A stretch of 16,599 nucleotides of DNA from Thermodesulfobacteriota bacterium (GCA_041572575.1 JBFFSH010000057.1:1-16599); one strand, 5' to 3'. Shown: positions 1,705 through 16,580, numbered from the stretch's first letter. Numbers and translations: made by a program. Notes: generated by a model from the letters alone, not told the origin.

Positions 1705-3894
1705 GTGGATTATATTTTTCAAAATAGAACGAGCAGGCTTCTTATCTCGCTAATTATTCTTTTATTAACCGCTAATTTTTCTATAGCAGCAATTTTTACT
1801 TATGACAATGCAACACCCGGCACTTTAAATGAAGTAGCAGCATCATGCGGTTCTCCATTAATCCGAAACTTCTCGGTTACCGATAATTTTACTATTAATG
1901 ATCTCAATGTGGGTTTCAATGCTAATCACACTTTTAGGGGCGATATTATTGTAGATCTTGAGTCCCCTATGGGAACCACGGTTAGAATTATTAGTTCTAA
2001 TGGTGGAGACGGTAACAACAACTACGATCTGCTTTTAGATAGTGCATCAGGCAACCCCATAAACGATGGTAACGGTGACAATACCGCTGTACCCATTTAT
2101 GACGGTGACAGAACTGCCGCACCAAGCAGCACCCTAAATGTATTTAACGGTCAAAATGCTAACGGCATATGGGAAATGCGTATATGTGATACGTTTGCAG
2201 GTAACGGTGGTACTTTTAACAGCGCCAGGCTTGTTTTTGATGGAACTTCAGTAAAGAACCCCGGAGAAGTTACAGGAACAGCTTTCAGGGATTACAATGC
2301 AAACGGCTCTCAGGATACAAACGAGCCGGGAATATCGGGCATAGAAGTATTTGCAACAGACGAAAACGGGACTACTGCCTCCACAACAACAGGCAGTGAC
2401 GGCTCATACATCATAGCAGCCGGTGCAGGGCTTACCGGAAACGTAAGAATTGAGTTTTCTCTTCCAGCTGGCGGCGCACTTGATTTTCTTGAAGACGGCG
2501 CCCCGGGGGCTACAAATGTGCAATTTTTTGATATAACAAGCGGAGCATGCGCAAACGCAGCATTTAATAATCCAGCACAGTTCTGCGAGTCTAATCCCAC
2601 AATGGTTACAAACTGTTACGTTGACGGAGACAACCTCATAGGGCCAAACCAGGATCAGGATGTATTGGTATCTTTCCCATTTAATTCATCAGGAGATATA
2701 ACTCCTCCTAATCACGAGGCAGAAGCCGAGCAGATCGGTACTACATGGGGACTTGCTTACCAGCGGTCATCAGACACACTTTTTGCAGGAGCATTCCAGA
2801 AAAGACACACGGGATACGGCCCTAACGGCACATGTGCCATATATGAGCTGGAAAACCCCGGAGACAATCAGGATGGTGACGGAGATGCGGGTATAGCACC
2901 TGCTCTTTTTGTAGACCTAAACTCCACATTTTCAGTAAACTGCGGTACTAACCCTCACCCAGGAGGTACAAATTTTTCAGTAGACAGCGCATCTTTTGAT
3001 GCTGTGGGGAAAAGAGCTCTTGGAGATATGGACATCTCAGAGGACGACCTTACACTCTGGACTGTTAATCTGAACACAAAAGATTTAATTGAAATACCCC
3101 TTGGTACAGACCCTACGACTCCCACAGTACCAGGAGCTATATTTACTCATCCGACCACAGCGCTTGATGATGTATGTGCAGGCGCTCCTGTAAATGCAAG
3201 CGCTTCTGACTTCAGACCTTTTGCGCTTGAAGTTCATGACGGAAGGGTACTCCTTGGAGGAGTATGCAGCGCAGAGAGCAACGGACTTGTATCAAGCCTC
3301 TACGGCGTAGTATTTGAGTTTAACCCGGGAAACACAAGCGGCACTGGATCATTTAACACATCTCCACTACTGCTCTTTCCACTTAATTATGACAGAGGGT
3401 GCGGCTTTGGCATTGCTTCAATTACAACCTGCTTTGGTCCTGCAGATTGGGAACCATGGGTTGCAAACTGGGGCGGATTCTCTTGGAATGTATTATTTGG
3501 CGATGGAACCAGAGAGATAGGACTTCCACAACCTATGTTAACAGACTTAGAATTAACAGAAGAAGGAGATCTTATAATTGGACTTAGGGACCGATTTGGT
3601 GACCAAACGGGTTTTGCTGAGCTTGCAACTAATCCTCCGGGAGGAGGTACCATTTTTTCGGGTGATGGTGAAGGTGATATACTCCTTGCAACATCCAATG
3701 GAAGTGGATGGAACCAGCCATCTGTACCTGCAGACGGCACATCAGATACGGCATTTCCACCTACAAGCAATGAATTTTCTTTGCAGGCGACTTTTTCTTC
3801 GACACTGAGTTTCTCCACGAAGAAACATCAATGGCCGGTCTTGCGCTTGTACTTGGGACAGCAACCCCGGCTTACACTGTTATGGATCCTGTGA
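1705..3894 (+). CDS. N-terminal part of a frameshifted large secreted protein: signal peptide, proprotein-convertase P-domain, SdrD-B-like domain, probable beta-rich domain
   Basis: Hydrophobic signal peptide (LLISLIILLLTANFSIA). P-domain motifs HTFRGDIIVDLESPMGTTV and FNGQNANGIWEMRICD. SdrD-B motif GTAFRDYNANGSQDTNEPGISGIEV...TTTGSDGSY. The genuine frame appears to end near 3777; the last ~38 aa look out of frame. Confidence 0.8.
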   Translation: MDYIFQNRTSRLLISLIILLLTANFSIAAIFTYDNATPGTLNEVAASCGSPLIRNFSVTDNFTINDLNVGFNANHTFRGDIIVDLESPMGTTVRIISSNGGDGNNNYDLLLDSASGNPINDGNGDNTAVPIYDGDRTAAPSSTLNVFNGQNANGIWEMRICDTFAGNGGTFNSARLVFDGTSVKNPGEVTGTAFRDYNANGSQDTNEPGISGIEVFATDENGTTASTTTGSDGSYIIAAGAGLTGNVRIEFSLPAGGALDFLEDGAPGATNVQFFDITSGACANAAFNNPAQFCESNPTMVTNCYVDGDNLIGPNQDQDVLVSFPFNSSGDITPPNHEAEAEQIGTTWGLAYQRSSDTLFAGAFQKRHTGYGPNGTCAIYELENPGDNQDGDGDAGIAPALFVDLNSTFSVNCGTNPHPGGTNFSVDSASFDAVGKRALGDMDISEDDLTLWTVNLNTKDLIEIPLGTDPTTPTVPGAIFTHPTTALDDVCAGAPVNASASDFRPFALEVHDGRVLLGGVCSAESNGLVSSLYGVVFEFNPGNTSGTGSFNTSPLLLFPLNYDRGCGFGIASITTCFGPADWEPWVANWGGFSWNVLFGDGTREIGLPQPMLTDLELTEEGDLIIGLRDRFGDQTGFAELATNPPGGGTIFSGDGEGDILLATSNGSGWNQPSVPADGTSDTAFPPTSNEFSLQATFSSTLSFSTKKHQWPVLRLYLGQQPRLTLLWIL

Positions 3895-6800
3895 ATACCG
3901 CATTTTCAAGCGGAATAGACTGGGTACAAACAACCGGATCAAAAGCAGATCATACGCACAGAAGCTATGAGATAATAGCGGGAGCCCCGGGAACCGGAAA
4001 AGCCGGAGGTCTTGGTGATCTGGAAGCGCTATGCAGCCCTGCTCCTATTGTTCTTGGCAACAGGGTATGGAATGATACGGATGCAGACTGGGTGCAGGAT
4101 CCGGGTGAGACAGGTCTTGGAAGTATAATAATTCAGATTTACTCCGATCCCGACGGCATACCTAACAATGGTTATGAAGTGTTGATAGGTACTACTACAA
4201 CCGATGGCAGCGGTAATTATCTTATAACGGATGCAGTTCTGCAAAACGGCCCGGACGGTATAAACGGCAATGGTGATGATGATCCAAATGCCGCCGTTAC
4301 GCTTAACACAAATTATCTTATAACCATCGATCCTTCACAGTCAGGTATTAGCACTAATAACTTTATTGTTACATTCCCGGACACTGACGAAGAACAAAGA
4401 GATTCGGATGCAACCCGACTTCTTAATAACGGAGGATCACTCACAGACTTCATTGCAATTCCTCTTAGCACATCAGGTGCAGGCGTAAATGACTATAATA
4501 TGGATTTTGGCTTTACGGCACAAGAGAACAATCCCGTTTCATTGTATTCGTTTGAGGCATATTACGTAGATAACTCCCTTAAGTTTGACTGGGTTACGGG
4601 TACTGAAACCCATAATGCAGGGTTTAACCTCTGGGTTGTTATTAATGGTAAAAAACACTACCTAAACGACGATATTATCCCAAGCCACCTCACAGATTCT
4701 CTTATCCCCCAGTACTATCAGCAGCTTATCCCAGCAGGTGATATTAAAGATGAATTTATGCTCCTTGGCCTCAGCAGTATTGATATAAAGGGCAAAGAAG
4801 AATTCCACGGCCCGTTTAAACTGGGTGAGAAATACGGAAGCGCTCCAGTAGATCAACAAATCGACTGGAGAGCCATAAGATCGGGTATTGATAAACAACT
4901 CGAATCCAAAAACCTTGTGCTAAGGGATAACAGCCTTAGAGCAGTTAACAAAGGTAAATTTACCACTACCCTTGCAAACAGCAGTAGTGCTGGAGGCGGC
5001 AACAATTCATCTCCAGACTCTGTATGCAATGTAACCGTAGGCTCAAGAGGTATTAACAGGGTAACATTTACCCAGCTTCAGTCTGCAGGATGTGATTATA
5101 CCGGAATAAACCCAACAGATATTGCAGTTATATATAAAGGCGCAGGTATTTCCAGATACATTGAATCAGGAAGCGCTAATGGGAAGAAGTTTAGCACGGG
5201 CGGTTATATTGACTTCTATGGAGAGCTCCCTCAAGACGGTGATTCTCTTTATCTTAAAGAAAATACTTATCAAATAAAAATAGACAGAACTCTTGCTGTT
5301 AACAGCAAATTAGTTAACTCTAAACCTAGTGGTTCGGATAGTTCTTATACAGAGACTACACTTAGACACCATAACCTAATCTACAGCTTTACCATGGCCT
5401 CAGAGAATGACCCATGGTATGAAAGAAGAATCTTTTCAAGAGGCAGCCCCGTATCTGCTGATTTTGAGGTAGTTACGGAGTCTGATGCCCTTACTACAGA
5501 TCCTGCCGTGCTTACAGTGAGTCTTGCAGGCGGGATAGATGCTCCAGGTGTTGATCCCGATCATCATGTAAAAATATATATAAATGGACATCAAGTAGGT
5601 GATTTCTTTAATAACGGTTTTGTGGACTGGTTAATAGAGATACCCCTTGCAGGGAACATCATATTACCGGGTTCAAATATTGTAACCGTAGAGGCTGTTG
5701 GAGATACGGGATTTCCGTTTGATATAGTGCTTTTAAACTATATTGAGCTTAGTTATGAAAGACCATATACAGCGGTAGCCGATAAACTGCTTTTTGAAGA
5801 GACAGTACAGTCTGATTTTGTAGTTACGGGGCTTAGCACGGACAGCGTTGTTTCTTATGCTTATGACGGAATTGATCTTTATATACTAAAAGCTGAAACT
5901 GCTGCAAATGCAGGAGTGTTTGATGTATCAATACCCGGGGTACAAAACAATAGTACATCTGCTGTTAAGTACTGGGTATCTGCAGAAAACAAGATAAACA
6001 ACACGCTTGTATCTCTTGCAAGGTCAAATACTGATATACTATCGGGGTTTGCCGATTATCTTATTATTGCACATCCGGCTTTTATAGGAGCAGAGCTTGA
6101 TGGTTATGTATCGCAGAAGGAGTCTGAGGGTTATGCAGTGAAGGTAGTTGATCTGCTTGATATATATGATGATCACGGCTCTGGTATGGCTACACCGTTT
6201 AGCATACGCAACTATCTCAAAGAGGCTGCTCCTTCAATAGGTTTTGATCATCTGCTTTTTGTGGGTGGGGATAGTTATGATTACCACAACAACACAAGCT
6301 CTGGGGTTATAAGTTTTATACCCACAATGTATGAGCTTACAAATGAGCTTATATTCTATACTCCTACAGACTCATTAATCGCTGATCTTGATGGGGATGA
6401 GATACAGGATCTTTCGATAGGCAGGTGGCCTGTAAGGAGCATTGATTACCTTGGTGCTATTATTAACAAGACCTCGACTTTTAGCTCTACCTCTACCTCT
6501 TCAGCATTATTGGTAGCTGAACATACCGATCCTTCCAAAGAACCTTTTAAGAATCAAACAGACAGGACAGCTAATAGGCTTCCATTTGAACCAGTTGATA
6601 TTGTTAAAGTATATGTGGATGACTTTTTGGATGCCGATCCGGATCTTACTATAAGCGGAGCTATAGCACAGACTAGAGATACTATGATATCAAGAATAAA
6701 TAACGGAACAAGCCTTACAATATTTGCTGGACATGGAGCGCCTACAATGTGGACATTTAACGGGCTTATGACACCAACTATTGCGCAGAATCTTACAAAC

Positions 6801-7115
6801 GCAGGGAAGCCCACATTTATTATGCCTCTTGCATGCTACACCACATATCACGTTATTCCTACGCTAAACTCTTTAAGCCATCAGCTTATGGCAGCAGGAG
6901 ACAAGGGAGCTGTGGTAGTTACCGGGGCTATATCACTCAGTACTCTTGCAGATAATGAAAAACTTGGGGATGGCATTATAGACAAAATGTTTTATGAAAA
7001 TAAAACCCTGGGACAGGCTGTAAAAGAAACTAAACAAATCTTGGGTACAGAGTTTAGGGATGTTGTTATAAACTGGCAGACGCTTGGTGATCCTACTCTA
7101 AAATTTAATCAATAA
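3831..7115 (+). CDS. C-terminal part of the same protein: SdrD-B-like domain, Ig-like PVxL module, C25 (gingipain/PorU-like) cysteine peptidase
   Basis: SdrD-B motif LGNRVWNDTD..QDPGE...DFGF, then PVSLYSFEA...DWVTGTETHNAGFNLW. C25 motifs ADYLIIAH, LLFVGGDSYDY, IGRWPVR, FAGHG (His 6732-6734), LACY (Cys 6834-6836) and LGDP. This frame is open from 3774, and its ATG has no RBS or signal peptide of its own. Confidence 0.85.
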   Translation: MAGLALVLGTATPAYTVMDPVNTAFSSGIDWVQTTGSKADHTHRSYEIIAGAPGTGKAGGLGDLEALCSPAPIVLGNRVWNDTDADWVQDPGETGLGSIIIQIYSDPDGIPNNGYEVLIGTTTTDGSGNYLITDAVLQNGPDGINGNGDDDPNAAVTLNTNYLITIDPSQSGISTNNFIVTFPDTDEEQRDSDATRLLNNGGSLTDFIAIPLSTSGAGVNDYNMDFGFTAQENNPVSLYSFEAYYVDNSLKFDWVTGTETHNAGFNLWVVINGKKHYLNDDIIPSHLTDSLIPQYYQQLIPAGDIKDEFMLLGLSSIDIKGKEEFHGPFKLGEKYGSAPVDQQIDWRAIRSGIDKQLESKNLVLRDNSLRAVNKGKFTTTLANSSSAGGGNNSSPDSVCNVTVGSRGINRVTFTQLQSAGCDYTGINPTDIAVIYKGAGISRYIESGSANGKKFSTGGYIDFYGELPQDGDSLYLKENTYQIKIDRTLAVNSKLVNSKPSGSDSSYTETTLRHHNLIYSFTMASENDPWYERRIFSRGSPVSADFEVVTESDALTTDPAVLTVSLAGGIDAPGVDPDHHVKIYINGHQVGDFFNNGFVDWLIEIPLAGNIILPGSNIVTVEAVGDTGFPFDIVLLNYIELSYERPYTAVADKLLFEETVQSDFVVTGLSTDSVVSYAYDGIDLYILKAETAANAGVFDVSIPGVQNNSTSAVKYWVSAENKINNTLVSLARSNTDILSGFADYLIIAHPAFIGAELDGYVSQKESEGYAVKVVDLLDIYDDHGSGMATPFSIRNYLKEAAPSIGFDHLLFVGGDSYDYHNNTSSGVISFIPTMYELTNELIFYTPTDSLIADLDGDEIQDLSIGRWPVRSIDYLGAIINKTSTFSSTSTSSALLVAEHTDPSKEPFKNQTDRTANRLPFEPVDIVKVYVDDFLDADPDLTISGAIAQTRDTMISRINNGTSLTIFAGHGAPTMWTFNGLMTPTIAQNLTNAGKPTFIMPLACYTTYHVIPTLNSLSHQLMAAGDKGAVVVTGAISLSTLADNEKLGDGIIDKMFYENKTLGQAVKETKQILGTEFRDVVINWQTLGDPTLKFNQ

Positions 7116-11814: not shown

Positions 11815-12582
11815 ATGGAATTCAAGGATAAAGTCGTGATCGTGACAGGAGCAGGAACAGGAATTGGTAAGGAAATTGCTACCGAATTTGCAAAATTGGG
11901 CGCAAAAATAGCAATAGCCGGAAGAAGAATGAGCAAGCTCGGTGAGGTTAAAAAGATTATTGAAAAGAATTCGGGCACTTGCCTAACCATTCAGGCAGAT
12001 GTGTCCAAGGTTAGCGATACCAAGAATATAGTTACTCAAACTAAAAAAGTGTTTGGCGGGATTGATATACTGGTTAATAACGCTGGAGTCTATATTCCAA
12101 ACCCTATTAGTAATGTAACTGAAAAAGAATATGACAAGGTTATGGATATAAATATGAAAGGCACATATTTCCTTACAAAACATGCCCTGCCAGAGCTTAA
12201 AAAGTCTAAAGACAGTAAAATAATGAATATAGCAAGCCTATCGGGTTTAAAAGGGATAAGAAATGTAAGAAACACGGTTTACTCCTCGTCAAAAGCCGCC
12301 ATGATTCTTTTTACAAAAACACTTGCGCTCGAGCTTGCTGAAGATGGCATATGCGTAAACTGCATATGCCCGGCAGTAGTCGAAACAGAGATTTTTTAAA
12401 CATTTGGTATACCAAAAAAGGATATTCCAAAACGAATGAAACAGTGGAAGAACTTCCAGCCGCTTGGAAGAAACGGCACTCCACAAGAAATTGCAAAAGC
12501 TGCAACCTATCTCTGCTCACCCGATGCAGCCTGGATCACTGGTTCAGTTTTCACAATGGACGGCGGGGCTATGGCGGAATAG
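11815..12582 (+). pseudogene. SDR family NAD(P)-dependent oxidoreductase (FabG-like), interrupted by an in-frame TAA at 12397-12399 (real nonsense mutation or sequence error)
   Basis: TGAGTGIG, NNAG, YSSSK and VNCICP motifs. After the TAA the same frame continues TFGIPKK...[41 protein letters not shown] to TAG at 12580-12582, a typical SDR C-terminus (255 aa if read through). AGGAG RBS upstream. Confidence 0.88.
12555..12582 (+). repeat. Direct repeat copy 1 (3' end of the SDR gene)
   Basis: AATGGACGGCGGGGCTATGGCGGAATAG; 23 of the first 26 nt are identical to 13207-13232. Confidence 0.85.
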
Positions 12583-12590
12583 GTATATAC

Positions 12591-12637
12591 TAGACTTTGC
12601 ATCCTATGTGTATTATAATAGCTATATATATCCACAT
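12591..12637 (+). promoter_or_regulatory. Sigma-70 promoter of the TA operon overlapped by an imperfect palindromic operator
   Basis: TAGACT (12591-12596), 17-bp spacer, TATAAT (12614-12619). Inverted repeat ATGTG (12606-12610) / CACAT (12633-12637) is centred on the palindrome ATAGCTAT. RBS GAGGTG at 12640-12645. Confidence 0.6.
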
Positions 12638-12651
12638 TAGAGGTGCTTTAC

Positions 12652-12885
12652 ATGAAAACAGTACAAATGACTCTTGATGAAGACTTAGTTAATAAAGTAG
12701 ATAAGTTGGTTAAAAAACTTGATACCACCAGGTCCGAATTCACAAGAAATGCTCTGAGAGAAGCTATAAGGAAATATAATATTTCCAAGCTTGAAGATAA
12801 ACATACTAAGGGTTATAAAAATCATCCTATCAGCAAAGATGAATTTGAGATTTGGGAAAATGAGCAGGTATGGGGCGACGAGTGA
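12652..12885 (+). CDS. CopG/ribbon-helix-helix antitoxin
   Basis: MKTVQMTLDEDLVNKVD...TTRSEFTRNALR matches an RHH fold, with an acidic C-terminus (GYKNHP...EFEIWENEQVW). The ATG at 12652 is spaced correctly from GAGGTG, and the stop overlaps the toxin start (GTGA). Confidence 0.88.
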   Translation: MKTVQMTLDEDLVNKVDKLVKKLDTTRSEFTRNALREAIRKYNISKLEDKHTKGYKNHPISKDEFEIWENEQVWGDE

Positions 12886-13193
12886 AAAAAGGTGAAATAA
12901 GGTGGTACAAATTCAAACCACCAGATAAAAAAAGACCTGTATTAATTCTTACTCGAAATTCCATTATAGATCACCTAAATGAAGTTACAATAGCACCTAT
13001 CACATCAACTATAAGAGACATACCAACAGAAATATTGCTTACTAAAGCTGATGGCCTTAAAAATGACTGTGCAATAAATTTTGACCACATCCAAACGGTT
13101 TCTAAAAATAAGATAGGATCAGTCATAACAAACCTTTCTGATGCAAAACAAGAACAAATCAAAAATGCCGTAATGTTTGCTTTTGATTTGTAG
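12882..13193 (+). CDS. mazF: Type II TA toxin, PemK/MazF family endoribonuclease
   Basis: KKGEIRW...DKKRPVLILT...VTIAPITST...GL..DCAINFDHIQTV.K..IG. GTG start at 12882 is coupled to the antitoxin stop. Confidence 0.9.
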   Translation: MKKGEIRWYKFKPPDKKRPVLILTRNSIIDHLNEVTIAPITSTIRDIPTEILLTKADGLKNDCAINFDHIQTVSKNKIGSVITNLSDAKQEQIKNAVMFAFDL

Positions 13194-13206
13194 GTACAAT
13201 AAAAAG

Positions 13207-13234
13207 AATAGACGGTGGGGCTATGGCGGAGTGA
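13207..13234 (+). repeat. Direct repeat copy 2 (orphan copy of the SDR 3' end, encoding IDGGAMAE*)
   Basis: AATAGACGGTGGGGCTATGGCGGAGTGA, 652 bp downstream of copy 1. Mismatches fall at third codon positions, and the stop is TGA instead of TAG. Confidence 0.85.
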
Positions 13235-13631: not shown

Positions 13632-14168
13632 ATGCTTATTTCAGAGTTTGGAGAAAATACAACTGGTACTATAGATGAAGCACAATCAACATTTGTTAAA
13701 TTCACAGATTCAAAGTCTGGGTACACGTTCAAAATAGAATACAGAGATAAACAAGAGTACTATATCAAACCCGGATCATTTCGTGGTATTTCAATAGTCA
13801 ATAAACATCCTTTACTTGAACAGCATGAATACTCTTACACAAATCTATATATTTCCAGTGCATCTAAAGAGTACGAAATTGTTGATACTAAAATTGAGGA
13901 TGCAATATATGAACACTACAATGGATGGAGAGGAATTAAAAACTACTGCAATATATCATATGGAGTGGAGAAGATATTAAAACAAGGATCAGGTTTATTG
14001 TATGAGGGACCGCCATCAGGAGCAGAAGTTGTAAATAATGTATTAAAAGAATACAATATTTTATACAGCTCAACCAGTGAAGGTAAGCCGAACGGTCAAA
14101 AATATAAGGTTTTGTTTTTAGGCAGTAACTTTGTAGTTGCTCGTGATTTTGAAGTTGTTTTATTATAA
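13632..14168 (+). CDS. Hypothetical protein
   Basis: 178-aa ORF with ATG 3 nt after the preceding stop; no recognised motif. Confidence 0.7.
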   Translation: MLISEFGENTTGTIDEAQSTFVKFTDSKSGYTFKIEYRDKQEYYIKPGSFRGISIVNKHPLLEQHEYSYTNLYISSASKEYEIVDTKIEDAIYEHYNGWRGIKNYCNISYGVEKILKQGSGLLYEGPPSGAEVVNNVLKEYNILYSSTSEGKPNGQKYKVLFLGSNFVVARDFEVVLL

Positions 14169-14179
14169 TAATTGATCAT

Positions 14180-14572
14180 ATGAAACAAGAATTAATATAT
14201 GTTGAATTAAAATCTGGACATAGTGACAACGGCCCTGCATGGATAGGATATAAAGGTTCATCAAAATCAGGTGCAACTATTTATTTTAATGGAATGGCAT
14301 TCAAGAGTCTTAAGGGCACTGGTATTGGCGCCAATTATTACGAATGCGAGACTGGTGATCAATATTGGATATCCGGCGTGAAAAAGAATGGGAGTGATCG
14401 CCACTGGGCTGGCAATGGCGATATACTTATTGATAAGAATGCTGTTAAAGACTACCTAGATATTAGAGGTCTTCGAGCTTTACCGAAAACTTTGGTTCCA
14501 ATTGAACTTAAGCCCTCCGTACCAAGCTTAGATTTTCTAGAAAATGAAAATATGGTAAAAGATTTTGAGTAA
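14180..14572 (+). CDS. Conserved hypothetical protein (YxELKxGxxDxGPAWIG family)
   Basis: YVELKSGHSDNGPAWIG...SKSG.TIYFNG...NYYECETGDQYWISGVKKNGSDRHWAG is a recognisable widespread small-protein family of unknown function. Confidence 0.75.
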   Translation: MKQELIYVELKSGHSDNGPAWIGYKGSSKSGATIYFNGMAFKSLKGTGIGANYYECETGDQYWISGVKKNGSDRHWAGNGDILIDKNAVKDYLDIRGLRALPKTLVPIELKPSVPSLDFLENENMVKDFE

Positions 14573-15061
14573 ATGAAACCGCCAATCGGAAAAGTTTTAC
14601 TTTTTCTTAGCACTGATTCAGGAGATCCGTCAGATTGTATTAGCTGGGCAGAGGAAGCTTTACATAATGGATTCGACAGCCCAAGCCTGAGAATATTAGC
14701 AGGCTTGGATAAGCCTCTAAATTCATTTGAAGTCAATGAATATACAACACGAGCACTACATGAGCTGAATATTAAAATCCCTTCAGAATCAGAAGCAGTG
14801 GATGAATATGCAAGTGAACTAGTTCTATTAATTATTGACCATCCCGAGCGTATGAGAGATGTATTAAAATTATTATCAGATCTAGCTATATCAACAGAAT
14901 TTCAGGATAACATTTTTGATTATTATCTTCTTAATGGGGCTTATGAAGATTTAGATATTAAGGATGTTCAATATTATTGGGAAGGAGCAAATAAGAAGAA
15001 CATAGAACAAATAGTGTTGGATAGATGTAAAAGCTGGATTGAGGAATATAACAAAAATTAG
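14573..15061 (+). CDS. Hypothetical protein (acidic, helical; immunity-like appearance)
   Basis: 162-aa ORF starting immediately after the upstream TAA, with a WA...L..GFDSPSLRILAGL pattern. Confidence 0.7.
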   Translation: MKPPIGKVLLFLSTDSGDPSDCISWAEEALHNGFDSPSLRILAGLDKPLNSFEVNEYTTRALHELNIKIPSESEAVDEYASELVLLIIDHPERMRDVLKLLSDLAISTEFQDNIFDYYLLNGAYEDLDIKDVQYYWEGANKKNIEQIVLDRCKSWIEEYNKN

Positions 15062-15095: not shown

Positions 15096-16580
15096 TTACG
15101 GCAAATCAGTGCTGCCCATAAGGTAACGGTCGCATTCTCTTGCGGCTTCTCTGCCTTCGTTTATTGCCCAGACTATAAGGCTCTGACCTCTTCTTGCATC
15201 ACCCGCGGCAAATACTCCCTCAATATTGGTCATGTACTTACCATACTCTGCCCTTATGTTTGACCTTGGGCCGGTATCCACATTAAGCTCTTCAATGAGC
15301 GGCTGTTCCGGGCCTAAGAATCCTAGCGCCAAAAACACTTGCTGTGCAGGCCATACCTTTTCAGTACCGGGAATATCAAACATAGTCAGATGGCCTTTGT
15401 CGTTCTTGCCCCATTTAATATCAACCGTATGCAGCTCTTTTACATTACCTTTATCATCGCCAACGAACTTAACCGTAGATACCTGATAATGCCTCGGGTC
15501 GTCACCAAATATTGCCTTTGCCTCTTCCTGACCGTAGCTAAGCTCATATACACGGGGCCACTGCGGCCATGGATTTTCAGGCGCTCTCTGCAGCGGTGGC
15601 TTTCCAAGTATTTCAAACTGAAAGAGGCTATTGCATCCGTGCCTCATGGAAGTTGCAACACAGTCAGTTCCCGTGTCCCCTCCGCCTATTACAATTACAT
15701 CTTTATCTTTTGCAGATATGTAATTTCCATCTTCAAGGTTACTGTCTAAAAGGCTCTTGGTGTTTGCATGCAGAAACTCCATGGCAAAGTGAATACCTTT
15801 TAGTTCTCTTCCGGGAATATCCAAATCTCTTGGCTTGGTTGCTCCTGTACAGATTACAACCGCATCGAAATCTCGGGTTAATATTTCGGCAGGAAGTTCT
15901 TTTCCGATCTCTGTGTTTGTCTTAAAAATCACCCCTTCTTCTGCCATAAGGTCCACCCTTCTCTGTACTACAGACTTTTCGAGATGAGGATTTGGAATAC
16001 CGTACATTAAAAGACCGCCAATCCTGTCATGACGCTCAAATACAGTTACCAGATGACCGGCTTTATTAAGCTGAGCTGCGCAGGCAAGCCCCGCTGGCCC
16101 TGAGCCTATTACCGCTACTTTCTTACCGGTTCTTATCTTTGGTGGTTCAGGTACAACCCACCCTTCTTCAAATCCTTTATCGATAATAGCAACTTCAATA
16201 CTTTTAATTGTTACAGCAGGATCGTTAATCCCAAGCACACATGCTCCCTCGCATGGAGCAGGGCACACCCTGCCAGTAAACTCTGGAAAATTATTTGTCT
16301 TATGAAGCCTCTCGAGCGCCTCTTTCCACTGACCCCTGTATACAAGGTCGTTCCATTCAGGAATTAGATTATTAATCGGACATCCCGATGTCATACCACT
16401 TATTATTTGACCAGTCTGACAAAAAGGCACGCCGCAGTCCATACATCTTGACCCTTGTTCTTTTAGTCCGTTTTCAGGCAAATGTCCGTGAAACTCATTC
16501 CAGTCATTTATCCTTTTTTTGGGCGACCTGTCTTTGCCAAGCTCCCTTTTGTGCTCCATAAATCCCGAGGGATTACCCAT
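15096..16580 (-). CDS. gltD: Glutamate synthase small (beta) subunit
   Basis: [58 protein letters not shown] and [29 protein letters not shown] at 16590-16594 on the minus strand. Confidence 0.97.

Follow-up and report, generated by a model that had tools for sequence, protein, structure and literature searches.

A toxin-antitoxin pair between two alleles of a dehydrogenase gene end in a Thermodesulfobacteriota bacterium and its probable insertion without a dedicated recombinase

When the end of a protein-coding gene occurs twice, on either side of a toxin-antitoxin (TA) pair, the question arises of how the pair came to be inserted there. The window analysed here is a stretch of 16,599 nucleotides, the entire contig C57 of a Thermodesulfobacteriota genome of 2.6 Mb that is 96% complete. 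On its plus strand a short-chain dehydrogenase (SDR) gene of 255 codons (11815..12582) closes with eight codons and TAG at 12556-12582 (copy 1). This ending recurs on the same strand 652 bp later, 14 nt past the stop codon of the toxin gene, as an orphan stub at 13208-13234 (copy 2), which reads IDGGAMAE and stops at TGA. The copies are identical at 22 of 27 nt, with a longest perfect run of 14 nt; 21 of the 24 sense bases agree, and the three mismatches all lie at third codon positions, two of them synonymous and one exchanging M for I. The original prediction had described this geometry, including the different stop codon, and it was confirmed. In a genome-wide stop-anchored scan the SDR repeat scored 17.5, and none of 1,136,002 opposite-strand stop positions reached 12, so the repeat is not a chance match. 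A search for a third copy, which the prediction had suggested, found none in the 2.6-Mb genome at up to five mismatches in 23 nt. One match to the motif, in L098, was set aside as chance: the contig is GC-rich and unrelated, and the match is on its non-coding strand. Intact SDR relatives end in either MDGGAMAE or IDGGAMAE, in agreement with the proposal that both copies are allelic SDR ends; the ATA of copy 2 is not a sign of decay, as Ile occupies that position in intact relatives.

The SDR gene is the host gene and its 3' end is the landing site. Its Pfam domains, adh_short and adh_short_C2, lie on either side of an in-frame TAA at 12397-12399 (codon 195), 60 codons upstream of the gene end, which the first reading of the sequence had overlooked. 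The full-length relatives are intact at 255 aa, six of them at 72-84%, and the nearest named ones belong to Candidatus Dadabacteria. The TAA is present in seven of the eight sequencing runs examined (the eighth has no coverage there) and a 194-aa SDR product is recorded on 127 contigs; because of this stop, copy 1 is not currently translated as the SDR end under translation table 11. In a sister species, represented by the metagenome contigs L096 and L097, the SDR gene is stopped elsewhere, at codon 183, by a TGA replacing Cys. Across SDR codons 196-255 the window and the sister species differ by 19 synonymous and 3 non-synonymous changes, so that both stops are probably recent and the tail mostly evolved as coding sequence. 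Two species thus have distinct premature stops, yet the codons downstream are under purifying selection, a pattern that would fit either parallel recent loss or read-through. Further upstream, at 12213-12291, the window shows five synonymous third-position differences from all seven runs that cover the tract, which may be a short recombinant or mixed-assembly allele.

The interval between the copies holds what the original prediction had listed there, a promoter (predicted), an antitoxin and a toxin, as shown by a consensus match and by Pfam, which detected no recombinase between them. A predicted sigma-70-like promoter on the plus strand (TAGACT-17-TATAAT, 12591-12619) matches the consensus at 10 of 12 positions, and shuffled sequence yields equally many such sites overall. 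A 5-bp inverted pair (12606-12610 and 12633-12637, plus strand, in the region 12591..12637) surrounds the -10 element and could possibly be an operator for autoregulation. The genes that follow, both on the plus strand, encode a ribbon-helix-helix antitoxin of 77 aa (RHH_1, PF01402, E 1.2e-6; 12652..12885) and a PemK/MazF-family endoribonuclease toxin of 103 aa (PF02452, E 6e-18; 12882..13193), whose start overlaps the antitoxin stop. This is the organization of a type II MazEF/PemK system, a two-gene operon in which the gene for a DNA-binding antitoxin comes first and overlaps that for a PemK/MazF toxin. The toxin aligns with the MazF3 structures 5uct and 5cca and retains the RPVLIL and APIT motifs. 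Its family is large (7,336 matches), and within the phylum it was found in one of 120 genomes; since the TA unit also has a G+C content of 32%, against 39-46% in the core neighbours, we regard it as foreign. The genome encodes a distant second PemK/MazF toxin on contig C5.

The TA pair lies in a variable slot. Downstream of the toxin, on the plus strand, this slot contains a DUF6869 gene (PF21746; 13215..13628, likely start ATG 13251) and three small accessory ORFs of 178, 130 and 162 aa (13632..15061) with no Pfam or NCBIfam match. Its right border is a convergent core gene on the minus strand (15096..16580) of the glutamate synthase small subunit type, which from its Fer4_20 and Pyr_redox_2 domains would be gltD. 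Two further DUF6869 homologues, at 33-35% identity, are encoded on contigs C119 and C9. At the other end of the window, 211-1325 holds a 62-aa ORF whose leader and core (YKKPEL..G.L.DITLGG) presumably resemble those of a lasso peptide, and after it an ORF similar to HPr kinase, possibly a lasso peptide cluster truncated by the contig start; Pfam gave no match for the 62-aa ORF. The ORFs of 729 and 1094 aa at 1705-7115 overlap and seem to be parts of one large secreted protein, split by a frameshift, whose end presumably resembles a C25 peptidase.

Alleles of the locus were sought in public sequencing runs. Of 24 listed runs, 19 contained half or more of the words sampled from the region; these came from 12 studies, and one study may be the source. 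Eight of the runs were examined. Single contigs carry both copies with at least 31 bases on each side in runs X1, X13 and X4, from three studies, so the repeat is not an assembly chimera, a possibility that the original prediction had raised; in X2 and X5 both copies stand in contigs that begin at 12546, 10 nt before copy 1. Other states of the site were seen in four of the eight runs. The empty site that the original prediction had proposed was found in X19, where a 156-nt contig of depth 2.1 joins 12564 to 13217 and skips exactly 652 bases; this is one contig in one of eight runs, found at 85% likeness. In this allele 12 of 100 SDR bases differ from the window, the end of the gene is copy-2-like, and the DUF6869 gene follows directly 3' of the SDR gene (3 of 56 bases differ); the seven listed differences are all synonymous. 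The X19 allele represents a related lineage and is neither a fresh excision nor the direct recipient. Other cargo behind the same gene end had also been proposed, and it is present. In runs X2 and X5 the sequence splits at 12575, where one branch has a third version of the final two codons and stop codon followed by unrelated DNA, and X4 diverges from 12540 into a copy-2-like end followed by other unrelated DNA, these cargos being known from their left ends only. The depth of the upstream contig is close to the sum of its branches (23.7 against 19.5 + 4.7 in X2, 24.8 against 19.9 + 4.1 in X5, 29.6 against 24 + 4.9 in X4), which, contig depth being a rough guide only, suggests that the same SDR body bears differing tails and cargos. 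No junction of a 652-bp circle was found in the contigs of the eight runs, and contigs drop rare forms. A joint from 13662 to 12414 in X19 was rejected as a circle junction; it consists of 18-22-nt matches away from the repeats. Run X15 showed no coverage of the TA pair in the 22% of it that was read.

In L096 and L097 the order antiporter, SDR, TA, gltD is the same as in the window and gltD again bounds the slot, and there is neither a second SDR copy nor a right-hand repeat around the TA pair. Identity between the window and L097 is 98.7% for the antitoxin (DNA level) and 94.6% for the toxin, against 81.5% for the SDR gene and 85% for gltD. The high identity begins inside the SDR gene: in its last 72 nt (12511..12582, plus strand) 2 of 23 codons differ from L097, while the body of the gene has 115 differing codons among 232 (Fisher p = 1e-4, with a boundary chosen post hoc), and the lowest 23-codon window of the body has five differing codons. 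The X19 allele differs in this tail, which therefore is not simply invariant. It follows that the TA pair moved or was exchanged between the species together with about 72 nt of SDR tail, and we infer that 12511..12582 is the incoming, donor tail.

The sister species also shows accretion behind the toxin itself, extending the additive growth that had been envisaged behind the SDR gene. Directly downstream of its toxin gene lies a homologue (75%) of the 130-aa ORF in the window. Next comes a stub that repeats the toxin end with a different stop codon and has a score of 14.5. The last 68 nt of the sister toxin differ from the window at 9 positions, against 11 of the 474 before them (p = 2.5e-4, boundary again post hoc), and the stub matches the window toxin end at 19 of 21 positions, against 17 of 21 for the copy upstream of it. 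This locus has the same anatomy one step later, with a swapped tail, a new gene and a displaced old end. For the slot's other six genes, no stubs were found within the window.

Arrangements like those of a donor (L096/L097) and a recipient (X19), and that of the product (the window), are all seen. The reading that we consider probable is a recombinase-free, homology-anchored insertion: DNA arriving with a gene tail of its own displaces the tail of the resident gene. The TA pair would likely have come from a related bacterium on DNA that carried that bacterium's SDR end, perhaps through natural transformation. The genome has intact comEC, dprA and comM, which indicates a capacity for competence and not its use. 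Host recombination likely joined the pair to the resident SDR gene and shifted the resident last codons behind the toxin. Homologous pairing in the SDR tail would have anchored the incoming DNA, and for this reason copy 1 would be of the donor type; copy 2 would be the displaced resident end. The far end would have been joined just behind the toxin stop to a point in the resident SDR gene some 27 nt, possibly as many as 45 nt, upstream of its stop codon. The joint would be a short-homology one if the incoming fragment was linear, or would come from a single crossover if the fragment had recircularised. In the second case, with a small circle, the donor tail should be at most as long as the stub. 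The swapped tails (72 and 68 nt) exceed the stubs (27 and about 24 nt), so the geometry somewhat favours a linear fragment, paired by homology on one side only and joined just short of where the homology ends, unless the stubs were later trimmed or the tails exchanged. The short mismatched repeat, with its 14 nt of perfect match, together with TA addiction would make loss rare. If no dedicated recombinase is involved, any gene end could serve as a target, including those of newly arrived genes. As in the original prediction, a new end was likely supplied and the old one pushed downstream, but the new end has no present function because the SDR gene is interrupted upstream. One point against this mechanism is that an allelic exchange of a 615-bp block, with the TA pair already in both species, also explains the identity pattern; another is that published homology-facilitated illegitimate recombination (HFIR) mostly deletes resident DNA rather than duplicating it (PMC3240628).

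The strongest competitor reverses the polarity and is, in our judgement, unlikely. The TA pair would have been resident behind the SDR gene, and the stub, the DUF6869 gene and the genes that follow would have come from an X19-like donor anchored by homology on the right, towards gltD, with an illegitimate joint behind the toxin; a donor fragment with a longer SDR tail would recombine with the resident SDR gene and thereby remove the addictive TA pair, and only short tails would survive as additive products. The sister species, with SDR gene and TA pair and no stub, agrees with this, and the last 68 nt of the toxin differ by 13%, near the species level of 15-18%. The pieces on the DUF6869 side in X19 and X20 (3 of 56 and 13 of 170) also differ less than the X19 SDR gene (12 of 100), a weak lean in the same direction. 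However, a separate exchange would be required, ending by coincidence 72 and 68 nt before two stub-bearing stops; X2, X4 and X5 show new tails and cargo on an unchanged SDR body, that is, anchored on the left; and the toxin, in one of 120 genomes, is foreign to the phylum.

For stubs at other gene ends, the stop-anchored scan covered about 2,540 mechanically called genes at a threshold score of 12, with upstream and opposite-strand controls. At this score seven matches were downstream and four upstream. Four orphan stubs were retained, all downstream: nuoM (56 nt, at 1.2 kb), nitrilase (35 nt, at 3.3 kb), parB (35 nt, at 0.7 kb) and SDR (25 nt), the first three gene names being our reading of the sequences. 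Above a score of 13 the upstream control holds only one paralogue pair and one near-exact duplicate. The paralogue pair (C32, matching in both directions) and the near-exact duplicate (C112) were dropped from the count, as were two downstream matches at 13, one of them probably a short second nuoM stub, and two upstream ones below 13. No stub shares the stop codon of its gene, and third positions account for 13 of the 17 mismatches (p = 3e-4). The nuoM stub starts with two residues that are found in a congeneric nuoM and are absent from the gene's own sequence, which fits an origin in another allele. NCBIfam gave no recombinase or nuclease match for the cargos, which are small genes, and the same integrase-free route likely acted at nuoM, parB and nitrilase as well.

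Several details of these loci are recorded here as observations. Behind nuoM on C12 (L141), the 56-nt stub and a short stub 180 nt before it lie around a 198-aa gene with a Cys motif, and REP-like palindromes, multicopy here and in relatives, stand beside the nuoM stop and the long stub. On C9 (L142, 46149-49400) five small genes, with one weak VasI match, lie between the nitrilase end and its 35-nt stub, and on C100 (L143, 4569-5300) one reverse-strand gene of zinc-finger type, near an rRNA-like region, lies between the parB end and its 35-nt stub; relatives have purS-type genes, by our own reading, directly 3' of parB. The C112 duplicate, of at least 60 nt and 3 kb upstream, appears to comprise the aspS 3' region at the contig end around a two-gene block, and could be a longer gene-end duplication scanned in the wrong frame. 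Among relatives, no SDR stub was found in 12 orthologue loci (one 11-nt match, under the threshold of 12, lies at another gene), and there was none in eight nuoM and parB loci or in 134 kb (12 stretches) of a congeneric genome; the habit is thus not shown to be general in the phylum. That congeneric genome, the only one, is 74% complete and lacks the region. A DNA search of 40 relatives gave distant SDR orthologues only and no TA pair. A scan of a genome collection with the SDR C-terminus returned 80 distant SDR loci. The stub scan of these outgroup loci gave three downstream matches, all of them set aside: L080 holds two paralogues, L070 has the look of neighbouring tRNA genes, and in L031 the repeat continues into the start of the next gene, which makes it a tandem SDR duplication; in this Streptomyces sequence (2490-3450) it spans the last 41 nt of the upstream gene and the start of the SDR gene.

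These loci bear on the idea of a minimal mobile cassette bounded by repeats like attL and attR, a cis-mobilisable islet whose tyrosine or serine integrase would target the SDR 3' end and be supplied in trans. We consider this somewhat less likely still than the reversed polarity. The exact empty site and the several cargos at a single site speak for it. Integrase islands and CIMEs can duplicate the 3' end of a protein gene, the usual length of att sites includes 24-27 nt, and a search for recombinases in the genome, which had been advised, found nine tyrosine and two serine genes over family cut-offs. On the other side, the right-hand repeat is missing around the same TA pair in L096/L097. The repeat also lacks dyad symmetry (best 4 of 7, a score matched by 99% of random windows) and with it a core flanked by inverted recombinase-binding sites. 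The five target genes are unrelated, their stubs vary from 21 to 56 nt, and their ends share no core (the longest run in common is 6-7 nt, against 6.1 in random sequence). None of the recombinase genes is on the four stub contigs, and no cognate integrase was found there, in the window or in L096/L097; viral contigs show neither the repeat motif nor a toxin relative, and the circle joint is lacking in the contigs of the eight runs. The att-bounded cassette is thus not supported. An integron cassette finds no agreement on the side of the integrase, the genome's best match to an integron integrase (TIGR02249) scoring 82.8 bits against a cut-off of 265.

Copy 2 might instead be the remnant of a tandem SDR paralogue, or of a duplication once far longer, after deletion from the left, as the original prediction had itself allowed. 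Such a deletion would also leave a stub ending at the stop codon, the 18 nt further upstream of copy 2 have a weak likeness to the SDR gene, and a longer duplication that was later trimmed is indistinguishable from a short one. We nevertheless hold this improbable: the empty allele joins an SDR orthologue straight to the DNA after copy 2, no tandem SDR pair occurs in the 12 orthologue loci or in L096/L097, and the same history would be required for each of the four other stubs. An assembly chimera or a chance repeat, to which the five differences in 12213-12291 might point, is the most remote of these alternatives, given the bridging contigs in X1, X13 and X4 (and, from 12546, in X2 and X5) and the 0 of 1.14 million in the opposite-strand control.

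Returning to insertion anchored in a gene tail, we suggest, tentatively and with more doubt than for the locus itself, that serial displacement of gene tails may be a general way for accessory arrays to grow in this lineage without recombinase or nuclease, in which about 70 nt of the 3' end of any gene, even the latest arrival, would serve as anchor and a stub of 20-60 nt would be left. If so, the tail exceeding the stub in two independent events would indicate a one-sided homologous anchor with the joint just inside the end of homology, and long target duplication would require no DNA-cutting cargo. Insertion with long target duplication is a class reportedly described for restriction-modification (RM) genes by Nobusato in 2000. 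It was set out by Furuta, Abe and Kobayashi in 2010, who found that the duplications often span start or stop sites and suggested DNA breakage by the RM enzymes as mechanism (PMC2853133). Our locus shares with that class an addiction-type pair without mobility gene, a direct repeat of unique host sequence of variable length over a stop codon, and a single-copy empty site in a relative (X19, one contig, depth 2.1); the insert, 652 bp with two genes, is far within the limit of 20 kb. It differs in that the cargo is an RNase TA pair (RHH antitoxin and PemK/MazF toxin) instead of R and M gene homologues, the genes at the other three sites having no nuclease match; in that the repeat of 24-27 nt falls short of the required 30 bp and consists of two diverged alleles, not near-identical copies; and in that a second event nests behind a cargo gene. 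Because the RM cargo and the length of over 30 bp (27 nt here) are both lacking, the locus was not filed under that class; the stubs at nuoM, parB and nitrilase, of 35-56 nt without their stop codons, would be long enough. No TA-only unit flanked by two copies of a protein-gene end came up in a literature search; shorter or non-RM cases may stand in the supplementary figures of PMC2853133.

A second likeness is to the displacement of tips in rhs genes, where an incoming gene end and its downstream genes pair with the resident gene and the old end is shunted downstream (PMC2935791), and to the effector-immunity arrays of T6SS, for which an HFIR model has been given (PMC5361080). The shunted old end, growth by repetition and the lack of an integrase are common to these arrays and our locus, a circle or HFIR having been proposed there; the orphan 3' fragment downstream of the incoming DNA, of another allele and of variable length, is likewise found here. 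Unlike in rhs, where a new toxin tip is placed on a repeated core, there is no polymorphic toxin core with tips and immunity genes: the anchor is a housekeeping-type SDR gene, the protein end is unchanged, only the cargo is new and the relic amounts to nine codons. HFIR and recircularised fragments share with our proposal one homologous anchor and one illegitimate joint; they are RecA-dependent, and the circle route duplicates part of the homology. In E. coli 56 of 60 recombinants had duplicated part of the homologous segment; single crossovers there gave duplications of 109-950 bp, longer than the 27 nt here (PMC3240628). HFIR usually deletes about 1 kb of resident DNA, whereas here 27 nt are duplicated and the swapped tail is longer. 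Chromosomal islets that consist only of a TA pair spread by recombination in flanking core genes, and the part of that account available to us describes no gene-end stub (PMC13617665). The unit here resembles such islets and CIMEs in being very small, TA-only and provided with a restored gene end, and differs from integrase islands and CIMEs in having no integrase or att features.

Taken singly, the locus is ordinary: its TA pair is of a common family and occupies a variable slot downstream of a gene that is at present broken. How integrase-free insertion with target duplication comes about has been an open question ever since the RM cases (PMC2853133). The RNase cargo, the presence of all three allele types and the nested second event constrain the mechanism and give it a testable geometry, a tail longer than the stub. 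Gene-end stubs also provide cheap markers of insertion history in uncultured genomes. Insertion of a TA pair at a gene tail follows a known integrase-free route, of which this locus is a variant distinguished by its RNase cargo, its three allele types and its nested event.
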